Assembly (NCBI GenBank): GCA_030668705.1
Contig: DAOVFB010000001.1
Location: 1 to 60,950, forward strand
Source: Candidatus Stahliibacteriota bacterium
GTDB lineage: Bacteria; Hydrothermota; UBA3072
Direction of reading: 5' to 3'
DNA length: 60,950 nucleotides
Made by a program: the position numbers and the translations under genes. Numbering within the stretch: the first letter of the stretch is position 1; each line of letters opens with the position of its first letter. The notes below the pieces were generated by a model. The model was not told the DNA's origin and made no database searches. It saw nothing but the letters and a program-made list of their open reading frames with translations. Positions 20,686 through 32,263 of this stretch are shown one piece after another.

Positions 20686-21944
20686 TTGTTTCTATTATTG
20701 TTGCTGTTTTGGCACTTAGTATTCTCATATTTGTTCATGAGTTATCTCATTTCCTGATAGCCAAAGCTTCTTCCATCGATGCTCCCGTATTTTCGATAGG
20801 CTTTGGCCCCCGCCTTTTTTCCTTTAAGTGGAAAGAGACGGATTTCAGGGTATCGGCAATTCCATTTGGAGGATACGTACAGTTAAAGGGAATGGAACCC
20901 GATGAAATAAAAGGAGAAAGGAATGAATTCTACTCAAGGAATGTCGTCCTTCGGATTGCTACAGTATTTGGAGGACCCTTTGCCAATATCCTTTTTGGAT
21001 TTTTGCTGTATCTCGGTATATTTGGTATTGGTGGGATAGAAGTACCGGATACGACTATTATTGGTAGTTCAGCTGCAGGAAGTTATCTTATCCAGGGAGA
21101 TAGAATCCTTTCCATTGATAACAACGAGGTTTTTAACTGGTATGATATAACAAAGGACCTCAAAAATGGCTCGGAAGTCCTGCTCATTCGGGATGGAGAG
21201 GAAAAGAGGGTAATTGCTGATTCTGTATATCTCGATTCGCTATTTCCTCAGTATCCCCCTATCGTTGGGATGGTAGATAAGGGAGGACCCGCATATTCAA
21301 GCGGTATAAGAGAGGGGGCGAGGATTCTTGCGATAAATGGAAAGAAACTCGATAAATGGGAAGATATAACCACCTGTGTTTATCCTGCTGCAGGGGATTC
21401 TCTCAGTGTCCTGTACTGCCAGAATGGTGATACTGCTCTTCTTACAATGGTTCCGAAGGAGCAGAAAGCTCTCGTAGGTGATTCAGTCGTGAGTAGAGGA
21501 ATAATAGGGATTACATCTCCAATTAAGACAGTCAAGATATCCTTTCCTCTGGCCGTTTCCTTTGCATCAAAGCAGACCTGGGGAACTGCTACAATAATCT
21601 TTCGCTCGATTTCTCTTTTAATACATAGAAAGGTATCAGCCAGGAATCTGGCCGGTCCAGTGGGAATTGTTATGCTAACACAGCAAAGTATGAGATGGGG
21701 GCTTAACAGTCTCCTCTCCTTTGTTGCCCTTCTCTCTGTGAATCTGGCGATTGTTAATTTAATACCTATTCCTCCTTTAGATGGATTTCATATCGTTGCT
21801 TCTGTTGTTAGTAGTATTGTCAGAAGAAAACCCTCTAAAAAGATGCTGCAGATTATTACGGTGATTGGAACTATGATTTTACTATCACTTATGGCCCTGC
21901 TTCTTCTTAATGATATATTGAGATTATTCAGTGGAGGTATGTAA
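20682..21944 (+). CDS. rseP: RIP site-2 metalloprotease (M50) RseP
   Basis: 420 aa with HELSH at the N-terminus, a PDZ region and a C-terminal NLIPIPPLDG motif. Confidence 0.9.
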   Translation: MIVSIIVAVLALSILIFVHELSHFLIAKASSIDAPVFSIGFGPRLFSFKWKETDFRVSAIPFGGYVQLKGMEPDEIKGERNEFYSRNVVLRIATVFGGPFANILFGFLLYLGIFGIGGIEVPDTTIIGSSAAGSYLIQGDRILSIDNNEVFNWYDITKDLKNGSEVLLIRDGEEKRVIADSVYLDSLFPQYPPIVGMVDKGGPAYSSGIREGARILAINGKKLDKWEDITTCVYPAAGDSLSVLYCQNGDTALLTMVPKEQKALVGDSVVSRGIIGITSPIKTVKISFPLAVSFASKQTWGTATIIFRSISLLIHRKVSARNLAGPVGIVMLTQQSMRWGLNSLLSFVALLSVNLAIVNLIPIPPLDGFHIVASVVSSIVRRKPSKKMLQIITVIGTMILLSLMALLLLNDILRLFSGGM

Positions 21945-23860
21945 TGGAGAAGTATTGGGTTGCCTCGATGGAGGAATTTGAATTTGGCGCAGAAGTCCTC
22001 ACACAACCAGTTCTAAAAAGATTAAGAGATATCGCTAACGAGTGTCGGGGGGATATATTAAAGATGACCACCATTGCAAACTCAGGACACCCGGGAGGCT
22101 CTATGTCATCTATAGACATATATACTATTGTCTACAGTTTAACCGACCTTGATAAGAATAAAGTGGTAGTGAGCCATGGTCATACCTCTCCAGGCGTATA
22201 TTCCATCCTGGGCAGACTTGGCATTATTGACCGTGAAGAACTCCTTTCTTTTTTCCGTTATGCTGGAGGCCCTTATGAGGGGCATGTTGAATCTCACCTG
22301 CCGCATATTGTATGGAGCACGGGAAACCTTGGGCAGGGATTATCTGCAGGATGCGGTTTTGCTATCGCATCAAAGTTAAAGAAAGAGAATAGTCATACAT
22401 TTGTTCTTATGAGTGATGCAGAGCAGACAAAGGGCCAGGTTGCAGAGGCGCGTCGTTTTGCATCTAAATTTAGCCTTAATAATTTAACTGTTGTAATAGA
22501 TTATAATCACCGGCAGATTTCTGGCAAAATAGAGGATATAATGCCAGTAAACATAAAGGAAAACTACATTGCAGATGGGTGGAGGGTACTGGAGGTTGAT
22601 GGACATAACTTTGAATCCTTATATGAAGCATTGCACACAGCACGTAACGATAAATCTTACCATTATGCAATCCTTTCCGAAACAGTAATGGGTAAAGGGG
22701 TTTCATTTATGGAGGGAAACGTAGCATATCATGGTAGTGCATTGTCTGGTGAAGAATTAGAAAGAGCTTTAAATGAACTCGGAATCGAGAATGATATAGA
22801 TAGATTCATAAAGATAAGAAAGGAGAAAGAACCACAGCATTTTATAAAGAGCCCTGTCCATGAACTACTACCCGAGATTAAAGTAGGAACCCCAAGGGAG
22901 TATAAAGTAGGAGAAAAATTAGGTAACAGGAATGCTTTTGGGAATGCATTAGCGGAGCTTGGAAGATTAAATGAACCAGGGACTATTGTGGCACTTGATT
23001 GCGATCTTGCTGGATCTGTTGGATTAAAGGTATTCGGGGAAGTTTATCCTGAGTTTCTTATAGAGACAGGTGTTTCCGAACATAATACAGCTACTGTTGC
23101 AGGAGTCCTTTCCACTCAGGGGATACATACATTCCTGGCTGATTTTGGCGTTTTCGGGATTGACGAGATGTACAATCAGCAGCGTCTAAATGCAATAAAC
23201 GGGACAAAAGTTCGCCTGATATTAACACATTGTGGTATAAACGTGGGTGAGGATGGAAAAACTCATCACTGCATAGATTACCTTGGTATGGTAAGGAATT
23301 TGCCAGGTTTTGCAGTCATTATACCAGCTGATATAAATCAGACAGATAGGATTATCCGCTATCTCCCAAAGATGGATCGGAATGTTATGGTGGTTATGGG
23401 TAGGGCAAAGGAAGGAGTGATCAGCGATTTGGATGGTAAGCCAATCTTTGGTGGGGACTATGAGTTTGAATACGGGAAGATTGATGTCATTCGGGATGGG
23501 AATGATGGGGTTATCTTATCTTATGGATATGCACTTCGTCTTGCCATTGAGGCCCAGGAAATCCTTGCCGGGTTCGGTATCTCTTTAAGGGTTTTAAATG
23601 TATCTTCGCCTTTGGAAATTGGTGCGGAAGATGTAAAGAAGATAGTGGAGTATAGGAATATTTTTACCTATGAGGACCATCTCGTTGGGAGTGGGCTTGG
23701 TTCCATTGTTGGTAATCTCATAGCCTTAAATGGAATTTCTATGAACTTCCAGTCTTTTGGTATCACTGATTTTGCTCCATCTGGCAATGCAAAAGATTTA
23801 TTCAAAAAGATTGGACTCGATCCAGAAACTGTAGCAAATAGGATTAAAGAAAAGATTTAA
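21944..23860 (+). CDS. tkt: Transketolase (fused N- and C-terminal halves, short form)
   Basis: 638 aa with a TPP-binding GHPGGS..S block, a GDG-like region, and pyrimidine-binding and C-terminal domains. Confidence 0.88.
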   Translation: MEKYWVASMEEFEFGAEVLTQPVLKRLRDIANECRGDILKMTTIANSGHPGGSMSSIDIYTIVYSLTDLDKNKVVVSHGHTSPGVYSILGRLGIIDREELLSFFRYAGGPYEGHVESHLPHIVWSTGNLGQGLSAGCGFAIASKLKKENSHTFVLMSDAEQTKGQVAEARRFASKFSLNNLTVVIDYNHRQISGKIEDIMPVNIKENYIADGWRVLEVDGHNFESLYEALHTARNDKSYHYAILSETVMGKGVSFMEGNVAYHGSALSGEELERALNELGIENDIDRFIKIRKEKEPQHFIKSPVHELLPEIKVGTPREYKVGEKLGNRNAFGNALAELGRLNEPGTIVALDCDLAGSVGLKVFGEVYPEFLIETGVSEHNTATVAGVLSTQGIHTFLADFGVFGIDEMYNQQRLNAINGTKVRLILTHCGINVGEDGKTHHCIDYLGMVRNLPGFAVIIPADINQTDRIIRYLPKMDRNVMVVMGRAKEGVISDLDGKPIFGGDYEFEYGKIDVIRDGNDGVILSYGYALRLAIEAQEILAGFGISLRVLNVSSPLEIGAEDVKKIVEYRNIFTYEDHLVGSGLGSIVGNLIALNGISMNFQSFGITDFAPSGNAKDLFKKIGLDPETVANRIKEKI

Positions 23861-23997
23861 TCATCATCCCTTATTATAGATATATAACAATTTCTTAGTT
23901 CCTTAAGTTCCTCCTCATTATTTACATTTTGATTATTATCTATATTATCAATGTGAGGATGCCAAAGCTCTTCCTATCTTATATTTAAAATCTTCCC

Positions 23998-24225
23998 TCA
24001 ATAAAGTTCCTCTTCTGCCCTGAAGTTGTAGAAATAAACGCCTGCCGAAAGTCCATCAATATTGACTTTATGTATGCCCGCTCCCATAACACCATCAATA
24101 CTCCTCTGGAATTCCAATCTCTAAATCCATCTTACCGTATGTGAGCAGAAATCTCTAACCTTCAGCCTTGATATGAAATTCTTTATACAGTTATTCGCCT
24201 TTGGAGTAACAGACCTTACTCTGCG
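23998..24225 (-). pseudogene. Remnant of a T9SS-type C-terminal sorting domain (orphan 3' end with an in-frame stop)
   Basis: Minus-strand translation reads ..TPKANNCIKNFISRLKVRDFCSHTVRWI*RLEFQRSIDGVMGAGIHKVNIDGLSAGVYFYNFRAEEELY*. The G.H.V..DG..LS.GVYFY tail is the T9SS CTD signature. There is an in-frame TAG at 24121-24123 and no upstream body. Confidence 0.5.
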
Positions 24226-24605
24226 TTTGTTTTGGGAACGCGAAACAAGTTTCGCTACTCCAATTGTTTTCAAAAATATCTTCTTGTCAAATGATTTTTT
24301 TACAAAAATGATTCATTTTCTCAATTTTGAGTAACAGACCTTACTCTGCACCCTCTGGCATCGGGACAAGGATGTCCCTCCTACATTTTGGGTGACTCAT
24401 CGAGTCACCCCTACCTATGTAGGCACGGTTTCAACCGTGCATTGTGCACGAATAAATTCATGCCTGCAAAAATTGTGTTTGATGATCGCGGGCAGAAGCC
24501 CGCTCCAACAGAGGAAAAGGCAATGCCTTTTCCCTACAATCAGGGCGCGAGACTTGTAGAGGCAATTCATGAATTGCCTCTACTCCAATTGTTTTCATAA
24601 ATACC
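24201..24605. repeat. Two hairpin-module cassettes sharing identical head (GAGTAACAGACCTTACTCTGC) and tail (TACTCCAATTGTTTTCA) sequences
   Basis: Heads are at 24204-24224 and 24329-24349; tails are at 24256-24272 and 24581-24597. Internal perfect hairpins lie at 24240-24255, 24363-24378, 24390-24410 (nested in 24380-24423), 24423-24440, 24488-24503, 24513-24533 and 24556-24583. Confidence 0.85.
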
Positions 24606-24733
24606 CCTTGACTGAGGCCCGTAGACAGTAAACCAAGGTCAAAAGTCCTCCGCTTCGATTCATCATTCTCATTGACATATAGCTAATTGATAATATTTTA
24701 TCTTAGGATAAGAAAAAATGCGAGAATATAGAT

Positions 24734-25462
24734 ATGATTAAGAGAAAAGATGCGATAATACTTAAGAGTTTTGATTACAGGAATACAAGTAAGATAATAC
24801 ATGTGCTGACAGAGGATTCACAGAGGATTTCAGTTATTGCAAAAGGTGCACGGAGGACTACTTCCCGTTTTGGAGGAAATATCGAGCCCATCAATTTTAC
24901 TCAAATAGTATATTATATAAAGGAGGACCGGGATATTGGGATACTGAAGGAAGCTAATACTCTGGAGCCCTTCCTGAACCTTAAGAATGACCTGTATAGA
25001 TTAAATATAGCCTGGGGACTTATATGGATTGCAAAAAAAATACCTGATCCACAAGACGGCCTGTTCGGTCTCTTAGAGAGATCCCTTACCTTTCTCAATC
25101 GGGGATTCGAAGAAGAGGTATTGGTCTATTTTCTTCTTTCCCTTTTCCATTTGAGTGGTGTTTCCCCAAAGATCAATAGATGTGTGATGTGTGGCTCTAA
25201 AGAAGTGAAGTTCTTTGATATTCCATCAGGGGGTGCTCAATGCGCCGAATGCAGGGTAGACTCTGCTATTCTAGTTAATAGCTTACTTCTCGTACTTTAC
25301 GATCTAAAGAAAGGTAGGCTTAGAGCATGGGAGGAAATAGTCGAGTCTGACGAGAAAAAGGTCCTGGAAATAGTATTGGAATATGGGATATATCACCTTG
25401 GTGAATGGTTGAATCGTCTGAGGGATATCCTACCGTCCCGGATAATGCCAAAGGAGCGATAA
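24734..25462 (+). CDS. recO: DNA repair protein RecO
   Basis: 242 aa with an N-terminal OB-fold block (ILKSFDYRNTSKIIHVLT..AKGARR) and a CxxC...CxxC zinc motif (CVMCGS...CAEC). Confidence 0.85.
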   Translation: MIKRKDAIILKSFDYRNTSKIIHVLTEDSQRISVIAKGARRTTSRFGGNIEPINFTQIVYYIKEDRDIGILKEANTLEPFLNLKNDLYRLNIAWGLIWIAKKIPDPQDGLFGLLERSLTFLNRGFEEEVLVYFLLSLFHLSGVSPKINRCVMCGSKEVKFFDIPSGGAQCAECRVDSAILVNSLLLVLYDLKKGRLRAWEEIVESDEKKVLEIVLEYGIYHLGEWLNRLRDILPSRIMPKER

Positions 25463-31011: not shown

Positions 31012-31650
31012 TTAAATACTATCGAGAGTCCGTGTAATTACTCTACCCAGTTCAATAAGTTCGTTGATCTTTCTATACTCATCTGGAATATTGATTGTGA
31101 GTAGGAGAAAAGAATCGGTTTCTGCTTCCCAGGGGATGAACATTGTTTTCGCATCTTCTCCGTTAAGGAAAAAAAGATTTTCAGGTTGCACAGATAGTAT
31201 ATATGCTATAACTCGCCTATTTAGTAATTCTTTTTTGAAATTTTCATCAGAACCCCTGATATCATATGTTTCTTCAATGTTAAACTGATTTACTCCTGTG
31301 GTTTTAGTTAATAGTTTCTTGTATGGTAACCTGAATTTCTTCTGAAAGCTAAAAGTCTTATCAATCCTGGTATGGTCAATAGCAATTAACAATGCCAGGC
31401 TCTCTTTTGCTCCTCCGGAGATAGGCAAATATATTAAAAAAGCGTTATGATTATGGATACGTAGGGATAAATACAACTGCTTTCCATCTTCAGTTTCTTT
31501 TAGGGATAACCCGAGTCTCCTTGAGTATTCCTTCAGGTTTTTGTTTCTTGTTTCTTTTTTCTTTTTATCAATCAACTTCTTTATAATCACTATTAATAAT
31601 TGGAACAATATAAAAGCGGGGAGTATAAAGTTCTTAAATTTCTCCATCAT
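31012..31650 (-). CDS. Hypothetical single-pass membrane protein
   Basis: I chose the start at MMEKFKNFILPAFILFQLLIVII (31650) because of the abutting promoter. The ORF is open to 31824 but would then run across the divergent pilin-like gene start. I recognise no family. Confidence 0.6.
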   Translation of the reverse strand: MMEKFKNFILPAFILFQLLIVIIKKLIDKKKKETRNKNLKEYSRRLGLSLKETEDGKQLYLSLRIHNHNAFLIYLPISGGAKESLALLIAIDHTRIDKTFSFQKKFRLPYKKLLTKTTGVNQFNIEETYDIRGSDENFKKELLNRRVIAYILSVQPENLFFLNGEDAKTMFIPWEAETDSFLLLTINIPDEYRKINELIELGRVITRTLDSI

Positions 31651-31685
31651 AAGTGAAGTATATAATGATACAGGTATCCAGTCAA
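31651..31685 (-). promoter_or_regulatory. Sigma70-type promoter in the leaderless layout for the 31650 gene
   Basis: On the minus strand: TTGACT (31685-31680), 17-nt spacer, TATACT (31662-31657), 6 nt, then ATG at 31650. Confidence 0.5.
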
Positions 31686-31756
31686 CCCTTTTTAAGAAAT
31701 TCCCTCTTGACACATTACAATATTCCGTTATTCTCATCCTAAAAGGAGGAATACTA

Positions 31757-32263
31757 ATGAATAAAACGGTACTGCGAACGCTTGATTTATTAATAGTTAT
31801 TGCCTTTATTTCTTTACTGTACATTGTAATTAAACCTCAGTATAATCAGGGAAAGATAAATGAGAATAGTTGTAAGCTCCAATCTAATATGTTTACGGTT
31901 AAAGCTGGGGTTGAGAGGTATGTTGCGTTTAATAATGGGAATTATCCCTGCAATTTAGAGCAGATTTATGAAAATTTAGAGGGACTGGAGATACCCGTTA
32001 ATCCGTACACCAATGAAAAAATGACCATTTATGACCTCGTGCAATTTAAATATAGTGTCCCTGGTGATGTCGAAGATGATATGCTGGATGGGGTAAACGG
32101 TATACAAGCTGGGGAACCGGGACAGATTGGGGTTGGTTTCTTTATTCCAATTGGTAAAGATTCTATTCCCACAAAATATGGAATAATAGGATTTGACAGA
32201 AATGGGAAGCCACTCATTCTGGAGGAAGGGAAGAAAAAAAGAGTTGTAGTCTTGAGTGGCTAA
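31757..32263 (+). CDS. Type IV pilin / T2SS pseudopilin-like protein with a degenerate prepilin motif
   Basis: The ATG at 31757 follows AAAGGAGGA. N-terminus MNKTVLRTLDLLIVIAFISLLYIV resembles GFTLIELLIVIAII but has V at -1 and D at +5. The C..NM...A.E.Y....G.YP block is typical of pseudopilins. Confidence 0.6.
   Translation: MNKTVLRTLDLLIVIAFISLLYIVIKPQYNQGKINENSCKLQSNMFTVKAGVERYVAFNNGNYPCNLEQIYENLEGLEIPVNPYTNEKMTIYDLVQFKYSVPGDVEDDMLDGVNGIQAGEPGQIGVGFFIPIGKDSIPTKYGIIGFDRNGKPLILEEGKKKRVVVLSG

Follow-up and report, generated by a model that had tools for sequence, protein, structure and literature searches.

The closest described counterparts of the locus considered here are REPs (repetitive extragenic palindromes) with a GTAG tetranucleotide. 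GTAG repeats have been found in Proteobacteria, Cyanobacteria, Chloroflexi and the Planctomycetes-Verrucomicrobia-Chlamydiae (PVC) group; their stems are 6-13 bp long with occasional G.T pairs, their loops are 2-4 nt, they form head-head and tail-tail dimers as well as clusters of variable composition, and they are sited mostly downstream of genes; in one class GTAG is followed by two bases that do not pair, and the 3-nt foot is conserved (Di Nocera 2013, PMC3733652). The enzyme of the REP-associated tyrosine transposase (RAYT) type binds the single-stranded hairpin of GTAG REPs, and cleavage by TnpA(REP) needs GTAG and a perfect stem while changes in the stem sequence are tolerated (Corneloup 2021, PMC8266576). 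The REPs that flank RAYT genes in Pseudomonas include Pent1 (TGTAGGAGCGGATTCATCCGCGAT), Pput1 (TGTGGGAGCGGGCgTGCCCGCGAA) and Pflu1 (GTGGGAGGGGGCTTGCCCCCGAT) (Nunvar 2010, PMC2817692, Table 1). Here we describe a group of palindromes at positions 24200-24605 of contig DAOVFB010000001.1, from a WOR-3 bacterium, in the gap between dxs and recO ("the window" is the whole analysed stretch of 60,950 nucleotides). The region is probably a compact cluster of REP-type palindromic units, resembling a bacterial interspersed mosaic element (BIME) and lying beside the relic of a secretion-domain gene.

The feature is real and was correctly seen in a first-pass annotation of the sequence, which divided it into two units with a common head and a common tail; we explain it differently, as a strain-variable, REP/BIME-like, GTAG-tagged cluster; elements of this kind are known, though none had been described from this phylum. 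Each palindromic unit is a perfect GC-rich hairpin of 16-28 nt with GTAG at one foot (CTAC when inverted), the genome as a whole having about 40% GC. An inverted doublet, called a head-head dimer in REP terms, makes up unit 1, which is similar to the REPINs, which Bertels and Rainey reportedly described in 2011 as REP doublets forming hairpins. Unit 2 is the same outer pair enclosing six or seven more units. The gap was compared among conspecific strains, whose dxs and recO are 97.0-98.4% identical to those of the window and whose versions of the gap are called A (the window strain), B, C and D. The parts of the cluster in the window are as follows.

24200-24224, plus strand: head 1, a forward palindromic unit whose extended tag is TTGGAGTAA (sister strains have GTAG for its GTAA) and precedes a hairpin
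24240-24263, minus strand: unit U1, hairpin GCGAAAC-AA-GTTTCGC (24240-24255), foot tag CTAC (24255-24258), extended tag TACTCCAA
24255-24278, plus strand: tail 1, the U1 tag plus the 15-nt flank TTGTTTTCAAAAATA
24279-24324, no strand: AT-rich spacer, in the window strain only (absent from B and D)
24325-24349, plus strand: head 2, a copy that matches head 1 except at one position
24360-24385, minus strand: unit H1 of family 1, minus strand TGTAGGA, GGGACATCCTTGTCCC, GAT; hairpin 24363-24378, tag TCCTACA 24379-24385
24390-24414, minus strand: unit H2, hairpin GGGTGACTC-ATC-GAGTCACCC, foot tag CTAC 24411-24414
24419-24440, plus strand: unit H3, tag GTAG (24419-24422) then GCACGGT-TTCA-ACCGTGC
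24446-24463, plus strand: H4, imperfect hairpin GCACGAATAAATTCATGC with one C.A mismatch
24485-24510, minus strand: unit H5 of family 1, its tag degenerated to GTTG, minus strand TGTTGGA, GCGGGCTTCTGCCCGC, GAT
24513-24537, minus strand: unit H6, hairpin GGAAAAGGCA-A-TGCCTTTTCC, foot tag CTAC 24534-24537
24556-24588, minus strand: unit H7, 28-nt perfect palindrome with outermost bases GTAG...CTAC, extended tag CTACTCCAA (24580-24588)
24580-24603, plus strand: tail 2, the H7 tag plus the flank TTGTTTTCATAAATA

Exactly two copies exist of the head GAGTAACAGACCTTACTCTGC (24204-24224 and 24329-24349; no matches in 100 shuffles) and of the tail TACTCCAATTGTTTTCA (24256-24272 and 24581-24597), just as the first-pass annotation had it. 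With its flanks the head repeat is 25 nt long with one mismatch (24200-24224 and 24325-24349), the tail repeat extends to 24 nt, likewise with one mismatch, and the start-to-start spacing is 125 nt for the heads and 325 nt for the tails. All of the hairpins originally listed are present as perfect Watson-Crick stems. The hairpin of head 1 is GAGTAA-CAGACC-TTACTC (24204-24221) in the window and GCAGAGC-TT-GCTCTGC in strain D. Head 1 and U1, which reads TTGGAGTA, GCGAAACTTGTTTCGC and GTT on the minus strand, make up the inverted doublet, with tags outside and 27-nt arms that are 70% complementary and lie 9 nt apart. The tag of H1 pairs with that of H3, which gives the CCTACAT...ATGTAGG stem enclosing H2, and the imperfect H4 has as its paralogue a perfect GTAG-tagged unit, GCACGAAT-TT-ATTCGTGC, upstream of the head in strain B. 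The order of the units by orientation is + - + - - + (+) - - -, with heterogeneous linkers; the units are 16-28 nt long, their stems 6-13 bp and their loops 2-4 nt, which agrees with REPs as short palindromic units of 20-40 bp that have a 6-13 bp stem and a short loop in the survey cited above (PMC3733652). Unit 2 (24321-24605) folds at -108.4 kcal/mol on the plus strand (z = -7.6) and at -122.1 kcal/mol on the minus strand (z = -8.7), with 0 of 200 shuffles as good in either case; unit 1 alone folds weakly (z = -1.9). There is no comparable hairpin cluster elsewhere in the 60.9-kb window.

The hairpins were initially taken to be unrelated to one another. This does not hold, as they have a common GTAG/CTAC foot tag, which reads (the slash marking the edge of the stem) ...GTTTCGC/TAC in U1, ...TGTCCC/TCCTACA in H1, ...GTCACCC/CTAC in H2, GTAG/GCACGG... 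in H3, ...CTTTTCC/CTAC in H6 and GTAG...CTAC in H7. Where the heads of B and D read GTAG/CAGAGC..., those of the window have GTAA; H5 has the degenerate TCCAACA. Within the element, 6 of the 12 perfect hairpins have GTAG or CTAC at the foot, and in the rest of the window 3 of 119 do (Fisher p = 1e-5); when only the GC-rich hairpins of the element are counted, the comparison is 6/10 against 3/119 (p = 3e-6). Sorted by tag, the window units comprise six with canonical GTAG/CTAC, two with GTAA (GTAG in sister strains) and one with GTTG, in agreement with the conserved GTAG (or GTRG) that REPs have at one end. A tag-anchored scan returned seven tagged units in the cluster (H7 on both strands) and, in the other 60 kb of the window, only three weak tagged hairpins with stems of 17-50% GC. 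The tag also accounts for the complementarity between head and tail on which the first-pass annotation had remarked: it is real and has a simple cause, because both carry the same extended tag, TTGGAGTAG, in opposite orientations, on oppositely oriented units.

Moreover, some of the units form one covarying family. Family 1 consists of eight distinct copies from six loci across the strains, namely H1, its duplicate H1', H5, two units of an extra block in B and D, and U1. Its frame on the tag strand is TGT[A/G/T]GGA, a 16-nt palindrome and GAT, the U1 copy having TGGAGTA and GTT instead. In these copies 100% of the 48 stem cells are paired, compared with 74% in shuffles, and four of six pairs change on both sides, as expected of complementary stem variants. 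The covariation score is 0.77; shuffles give 0.21, none of 500 attaining the real score, and slid controls give at most 0.20. Of 13 matches to TGTAGGAGCG-N10-CGCGAT in a scan of viral contigs, nine enclose a self-complementary interior (chance p ~1e-9), and most of the 13 lie in contigs with 57-66% GC; thus, the frame brackets palindromes of varied sequence elsewhere in nature.

The segment that varies among strains and the four versions of the gap are as follows (contig handles begin with L).

23861-24655, no strand: strain-variable segment of 795 bp; L001-L003 have 124 unrelated bp instead, and blastn homology stops at 23860 and resumes at 24655/6
Version A: the window (= L007), also L008; gap of 873 bp
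Version B: L052, also L053 and L054; gap of 930 bp
Version D: L058 = L059 (NCBI metagenome-assembled genome (MAG) GCA_023127855.1), also L060 and L062; gap of 786 bp
Version C: L001-L003; gap of 203 bp, cluster absent

The first-pass annotation, which had proposed to compare the junction in related genomes, is right that the element is modular. The versions differ by gain or loss of units through deletion or duplication at repeated sequences. The two "units" of the original description exist only in the window strain: the A-type doublet is absent from the sister strains, B and D being without unit 1 and the spacer (the 125 bp between the window heads). Version D is without H2-H5 (150 nt), the junction being in the repeat CGCTCC[C/A]ACA, which comes after H1' and again after H5. 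Missing from the window is a ~110-nt block of B and D, which sits between two copies of ATCG[G/C]GACAAGGATGTC[C/G]CTCC[T/C]ACATT. Version B has a partial unit upstream of the head and a tail 9 nt shorter. The heads (GAGTAGCAGACCTTGCTCTGC, GAGTAGCAGAGCTTGCTCTGC) and tails (CTAC/TTTCA, CTACCCCAGTTGTTTTCA) of the sister strains differ from those of the window. Consequently, two earlier proposals are not supported: that of fixed termini around a variable cargo, since the sister strains have one unit only and other ends, and that of cargo growth by capture, since the content changes by deletion and duplication at repeated sequences and not by the arrival of new hairpins between constant ends.

Head and tail were recently duplicated or converted within the window strain. 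Two A-for-G changes are common to both of its heads, and two bases that are different in D are common to both of its tails; the second copies therefore arose or were converted within the lineage of this strain. Within the stems, the form of H7 in A and D differs from that in B by two double compensations (C-G to T-A and A-T to G-C), and H1 differs from its duplicate H1' by G-C to C-G. As to the other strain differences, several give G.T pairs, five fall in loops and a few are true mismatches; the wobble pairs do not decide which strand is transcribed. The segment replaced in version C is bounded by a 7-bp direct repeat, TCATCAT, at 23861-23867 and 24656-24662, which may reflect insertion, deletion or chance microhomology. 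The 124 unrelated bp of version C include TTTGAGTAG, a sequence similar to the head tag. In the next-closest relatives (L004 and L005, RecO 72-74% identical) mgtE and CNNM-family genes precede recO, and not dxs, which makes the dxs-recO junction specific to this species group.

The sequence of the window version is identical in two independent assemblies of the Joint Genome Institute (JGI; L007 and L008), and for every strain version two to four independent assemblies agree in sequence; hence no version is an assembly artefact, and the assembly chimera that the first-pass annotation had named as a danger is ruled out. Seven of the 11 contigs that carry versions A, B or D stop inside the element, in independent JGI, Logan and European Nucleotide Archive (ENA) assemblies. 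The breaks are at the starts of L008 (window 24147), L009 (24608), L060, L061 and L062 and at the ends of L053 and L054, and they are attributed to internal repeats and mixed strains.

If the cluster is of the REP type, its units would probably fold as hairpins in single-stranded DNA, as other GTAG REPs do, and the folded units would be substrates of a RAYT/TnpA(REP) tyrosine transposase of the HUH class. The need of such an enzyme for GTAG and an intact stem would explain why the stems are perfectly paired despite the drift of their sequence. Local unequal recombination or slippage between repeated sequences would then remodel the cluster. In E. coli, REPs and BIMEs are reported to hold back 3' exonucleases or to terminate transcription in part. 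Should the present cluster be transcribed, from the dxs side or from a promoter-like site in the spacer, its hairpins could likewise block 3' exonucleases or bring about partial termination between the dxs operon and recO. The spacer holds two promoter-like sites, both of them consensus matches only: TTGTCA-17-AATGAT on the plus strand (24284-24312) and TTGACA-16-AACAAT on the minus strand (24290-24263), which runs from the spacer back into tail 1.

Anatomy, tag, covariation, match to the literature and strain dynamics all support the assignment to REPs, and several observations weigh against it. The dispersed high copy number that defines REPs is not seen, there being one cluster in the ~100 kb sampled, and the tag-anchored scan of ~32 kb of sister and related loci (L001, L004, L005, L052, L058) found no units outside this locus. 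The Pfam scan of the 30 window open reading frames (ORFs) detected no RAYT or Y1 transposase. The stem sequence differs in nearly every unit, whereas a normal REP family shares one, and the regular alternation of two unit types that is typical of E. coli BIMEs is absent. No intrinsic terminators are predicted in 23800-24800. Lastly, searches for copies elsewhere gave nothing that resembles the element, in metagenome, genome and viral collections that evidently lack the genome of this strain, as even the locus itself gave no match. As far as these collections go, neither head nor tail has a real match elsewhere, and the first-pass annotation had named a head and tail confined to this place as a refutation of its view. 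The head 21-mer had no match in the metagenome and genome contigs and the head 18-mer one viral match, in coding sequence; the tail 18-mer had 34 metagenome and five viral matches, none with a head-like sequence upstream or another feature of the element and most apparently coding. The exact head and tail are poor probes, since sister strains carry variants of both. The H2 21-mer had three genome matches, all ordinary terminators of unrelated bacteria, and no viral ones.

These three matches deserve a remark of their own: the exact 21-nt hairpin of H2 (GGGTGACTC-GAT-GAGTCACCC) is a textbook intrinsic terminator, flanked by A-run and T-run, of Vibrio crassostreae and of two MAGs, one from Reichenbachiella and one from Paludibacteraceae (L055 2898-2918, L056 4354-4374 and L057 1625-1645), and three were found where ~0.3 were expected by chance. 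The H7 core had no viral matches, and blastn of H5 with its flanks against plasmids gave chance-level matches only. No Rfam 15 family matched the window at the gathering score, with chance-level matches only at E up to 10 in 23800-24800, and ARAGORN found no tRNA or tmRNA.

Several other explanations have to be weighed, each of which explains part of the observations, and none of the rivals considered below (small RNA, replication debris, MITE, terminator array) explains the tag together with the shared frame. A bolder version of the REP proposal, which we offer tentatively as the less expected course of events, is that the cluster is a site of in-place REP diversification, where tag and foot are kept, identical to those of Pseudomonas REPs, while each unit gains a new perfect stem. 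This would imply a REP/RAYT system with the gammaproteobacterial recognition code in Caldifarciminota (WOR-3), either ancient or acquired by transfer across phyla, and the locus would then be a snapshot of de novo REP formation. In a variant of this scenario, the tagged hairpins may be kept with no RAYT at all, whether through a different HUH enzyme or at the level of RNA only.

A stand-alone structured noncoding RNA gene, or two paralogous small RNA genes, on the plus strand is unlikely. The head would be the 5' hairpin, followed by a multi-hairpin body and a closing helix with a UUGUUUU tail as terminator. The very strong fold (z = -7.6) would suit such an RNA, but the minus strand folds better (z = -8.7). 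The promoter-like TTGTCA-17-AATGAT lies ~13 nt upstream of head 2, yet it is present in the window strain only. Some helices do persist: the head helix GAGUAR/UURCUC still pairs via two G.U wobbles in B and D, the long-range helix GCACCCU/AGGGYGC is perfect in both, and by our own reading of the sequences the closing helix is still possible in B (GGAGUAG/CUACUUU) and D. On the other hand, the stems are nearly devoid of G.U pairs, with ~4 wobbles for the plus strand against 1-3 for the minus strand (depending on the head helix) and hence no clear bias; the loops are not of the usual stabilising types; and no Rfam family is found even at E = 10. The conspecific strains differ by a deletion of 150 nt (H2-H5) in D, by ~110 additional nt in B and D and by the lack of the entire element in C, which fits independent modules and not one cooperative fold.

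We also regard as improbable that the palindromes are functionless debris, neither mobile nor selected, which would have arisen by erroneous template switching (fold-back) during replication and by local duplication where a gene for a substrate of the type IX secretion system (T9SS) had been deleted and the remaining stretch was decaying. The cluster does adjoin the relic of such a gene, which occupies the left third of the gap.

23998-24117, minus strand: relic of a T9SS C-terminal sorting domain in a 39-codon ORF; Por_Secre_tail is the top match in Pfam and NCBIfam, a weak one (E ~0.2)

An intact 69-aa ORF consisting of the sorting domain only (PF18962) stands on the minus strand in the same gap of strains B and D (L052 5001-5210, L058 1827-2036), and the window relic (region 23990-24190, minus strand) is 62% identical to the sister homologue P0054, with ~53 bp lost in the window according to the alignment. 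A secreted-protein gene was formerly located between dxs and recO, and the hairpin cluster is now in place of the gene body. The first-pass statement that the gap has no credible ORF is right for the element, whose ORFs have no Pfam match, and overlooks this decayed domain. The dispensability of the cluster, absent from strain C, would be natural for debris, as would stems that are perfect Watson-Crick on both strands. Two strain differences also look like fold-back products: the head hairpin GCAGAGC-TT-GCTCTGC of D is swapped for the different, overlapping GAGTAA-CAGACC-TTACTC in the window, with B intermediate, and strain B has a new 5' arm, GCACGAAT, opposite pre-existing sequence (ATTCGCC in D, ATTCGTGC in B). 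What debris leaves unexplained is the GTAG foot tag of nearly every unit (p ~1e-5) and the 7-nt head and GAT foot in common with Pseudomonas REPs; moreover, no other intergenic region of the window is like it.

A classical MITE (miniature inverted-repeat transposable element), in which 8-bp terminal inverted repeats (TTGGAGTA/TACTCCAA) would enclose hairpins as cargo and be moved by a DDE transposase, is very unlikely. The head and tail are each present twice in identical form, the ends are mutually complementary, and the strain-specific substitutions common to both copies suggest recent copying; but the complementarity is accounted for by the shared REP tag, and the conserved sequence runs asymmetrically past the inverted repeat. 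Neither unit has a target-site duplication, two units exist in this strain only, the sister heads and tails differ (the tail of B being altogether without its half of the inverted repeat) and no copies were found in the collections searched. The first-pass suggestions of a MITE-like palindromic element or of a terminator or insulator role were reasonable directions. The cluster is similarly hard to credit as a row of intrinsic terminators or insulators that came about in situ between the dxs operon and recO. Its position downstream of dxs and upstream of the recO promoter would be apt, and the H2 hairpin is the textbook terminator of Vibrio, Reichenbachiella and the Paludibacteraceae MAG, but none of the hairpins is directly followed by the T-run that a GC-rich terminator hairpin has, none is predicted as a terminator, and strain C does without the cluster. 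Such a role is compatible with the REP assignment and secondary to it.

Other candidates can be dismissed briefly. A CRISPR array (one of short palindromic repeats, clustered and regularly interspaced), which the first-pass annotation had already rejected together with a simple tandem duplication, rightly in both cases, is incompatible with two different repeats spaced 125 and 325 nt and with the lack of an Rfam CRISPR-DR match. The ends do not fit the RYYYAAC / GTTRRRY of integron attC sites (by eye), and a retron, omega-RNA or bridge RNA is rejected as no reverse transcriptase, IscB/TnpB or IS110 gene lies nearby. The H1 loop ACAAGGAUGU (tip ACA-AGGA-TGT, window 24363-24378, with duplicates in L052 and L058) resembles RUACARGGAUGU, which we take to be the CsrA-binding consensus; a CsrB-like protein sponge seems unlikely, the loop GGA being found only in H1 and its duplicate and the sequence being the tip of a family-1 REP.

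The gene row around the cluster is of the housekeeping kind (uppS, cdsA, dxr, rseP, dxs, recO, ribosomal proteins, nusA and others), its part from uppS through cdsA, dxr and rseP to dxs being devoted to isoprenoids and the envelope. Homologues of RecO assign the window to candidate division WOR-3, for which NCBI now uses the phylum name Caldifarciminota. The gene 5' of the gap (window 21944-23860), first annotated as tkt, is not a transketolase gene and encodes Dxs, 1-deoxy-D-xylulose 5-phosphate (DXP) synthase, with an orthologue that has DXP_synthase_N and transketolase-like domains. With the stop codon of dxs on one side and the recO promoter on the other, the cluster is extragenic and downstream of a gene, as REPs mostly are, and has no credible ORF.

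24672-24699, plus strand: recO promoter-like site TTGACA-16-TATTTT, outside the variable segment and kept in all strain versions

No transposase, integrase or reverse transcriptase was found by the Pfam scan among the 30 window ORFs, and the ORFs within the element give nothing credible in Pfam (best E = 0.16, chance level). Gene callers annotate spurious ORFs in it, one of 46 aa (window 24460-24600) and one of 57 aa (L058 2194-2367); the exact sequence of the former is found at this locus only. Farther along, recO (plus strand) and a convergent metallophosphatase gene (minus strand) overlap by 70 bp at their 3' ends (window 25393-25462), and the same overlap is annotated in every related locus. 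Two long opposite-strand ORFs, 31012-31824 (minus) and 31541-32263 (plus), overlap by ~280 bp, neither with a Pfam match, and likely at most one of them is a real gene.

If the proposed assignment is true, GTAG-type REPs reach an uncultivated phylum with an AT-rich genome and have there the same flanking motifs as in Pseudomonas, which would bear on the age and constraint of the REP-RAYT recognition code. The four versions of one locus offer a rare direct view of a REP cluster that gains and loses units while every stem stays paired. On the practical side, clusters of this kind break metagenome assemblies, as in the seven of 11 contigs mentioned above, and yield spurious small genes, here those of 46 and 57 aa.

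How does the cluster compare with known systems? The BOX elements of Streptococcus pneumoniae are built as boxA-boxB(n)-boxC, with modules that are conserved sequences and not tagged palindromes; they are alike in having conserved end modules around a variable number of inner modules, in strong structure and in intergenic location, and they differ in having no sequence relation to the cluster. The similarity to E. coli BIMEs is in the mosaic of units in both orientations, the short linkers, the location between genes and the number of units varying by strain, apart from the alternation already discussed; we recognised in the cluster none of the conserved linker motifs that BIMEs presumably have, nor, with no search aimed at it, an IHF site. 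The likeness of unit 1 to REPINs consists in two inverted units with tags outside and 27-nt arms; unlike the arms of REPINs, which are inverted copies of one REP and occur as a replicating population, these carry different stems, so that two small hairpins closed by an 8-bp helix would form and not one long hairpin.

The nearest relatives are the Pseudomonas-type GTAG-1 REPs. The cluster differs from them in its host, which belongs to the phylum Caldifarciminota (WOR-3), has ~40% GC and stands outside the phyla of the survey (PMC3733652), in having its own stem in nearly every unit, and in being one cluster in ~100 kb with no RAYT among the 30 window ORFs. Common to both are the terminal GTAG, the two unpaired bases (GA) that separate it from the stem, GCG...CGC at the base of the stem, a short loop, the conserved 3-nt foot GAT, a unit of ~24-26 nt, perfect palindromes whose stem variants are complementary, dimers of the tail-tail and the head-head kind, mixed clusters and an extragenic site downstream of a gene. 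H3 has the same layout of GTAG, 7-bp stem and TTCA loop as REPs of Haemophilus and Thioalkalivibrio (PMC2817692, Table 1). The Pseudomonas REPs named at the outset share head, stem base and foot with family 1, as comparison with TGTAGGAGCGGTTTCCAAACCGCGAT, TGTTGGAGCGGGCTTCTGCCCGCGAT and TGTAGGAGGGACATCCTTGTCCCGAT of the cluster makes plain, and the P. putida REP TGTGGGAGCGGGCgTGCCCGCGAA is identical to H5 at 20 of 24 positions.

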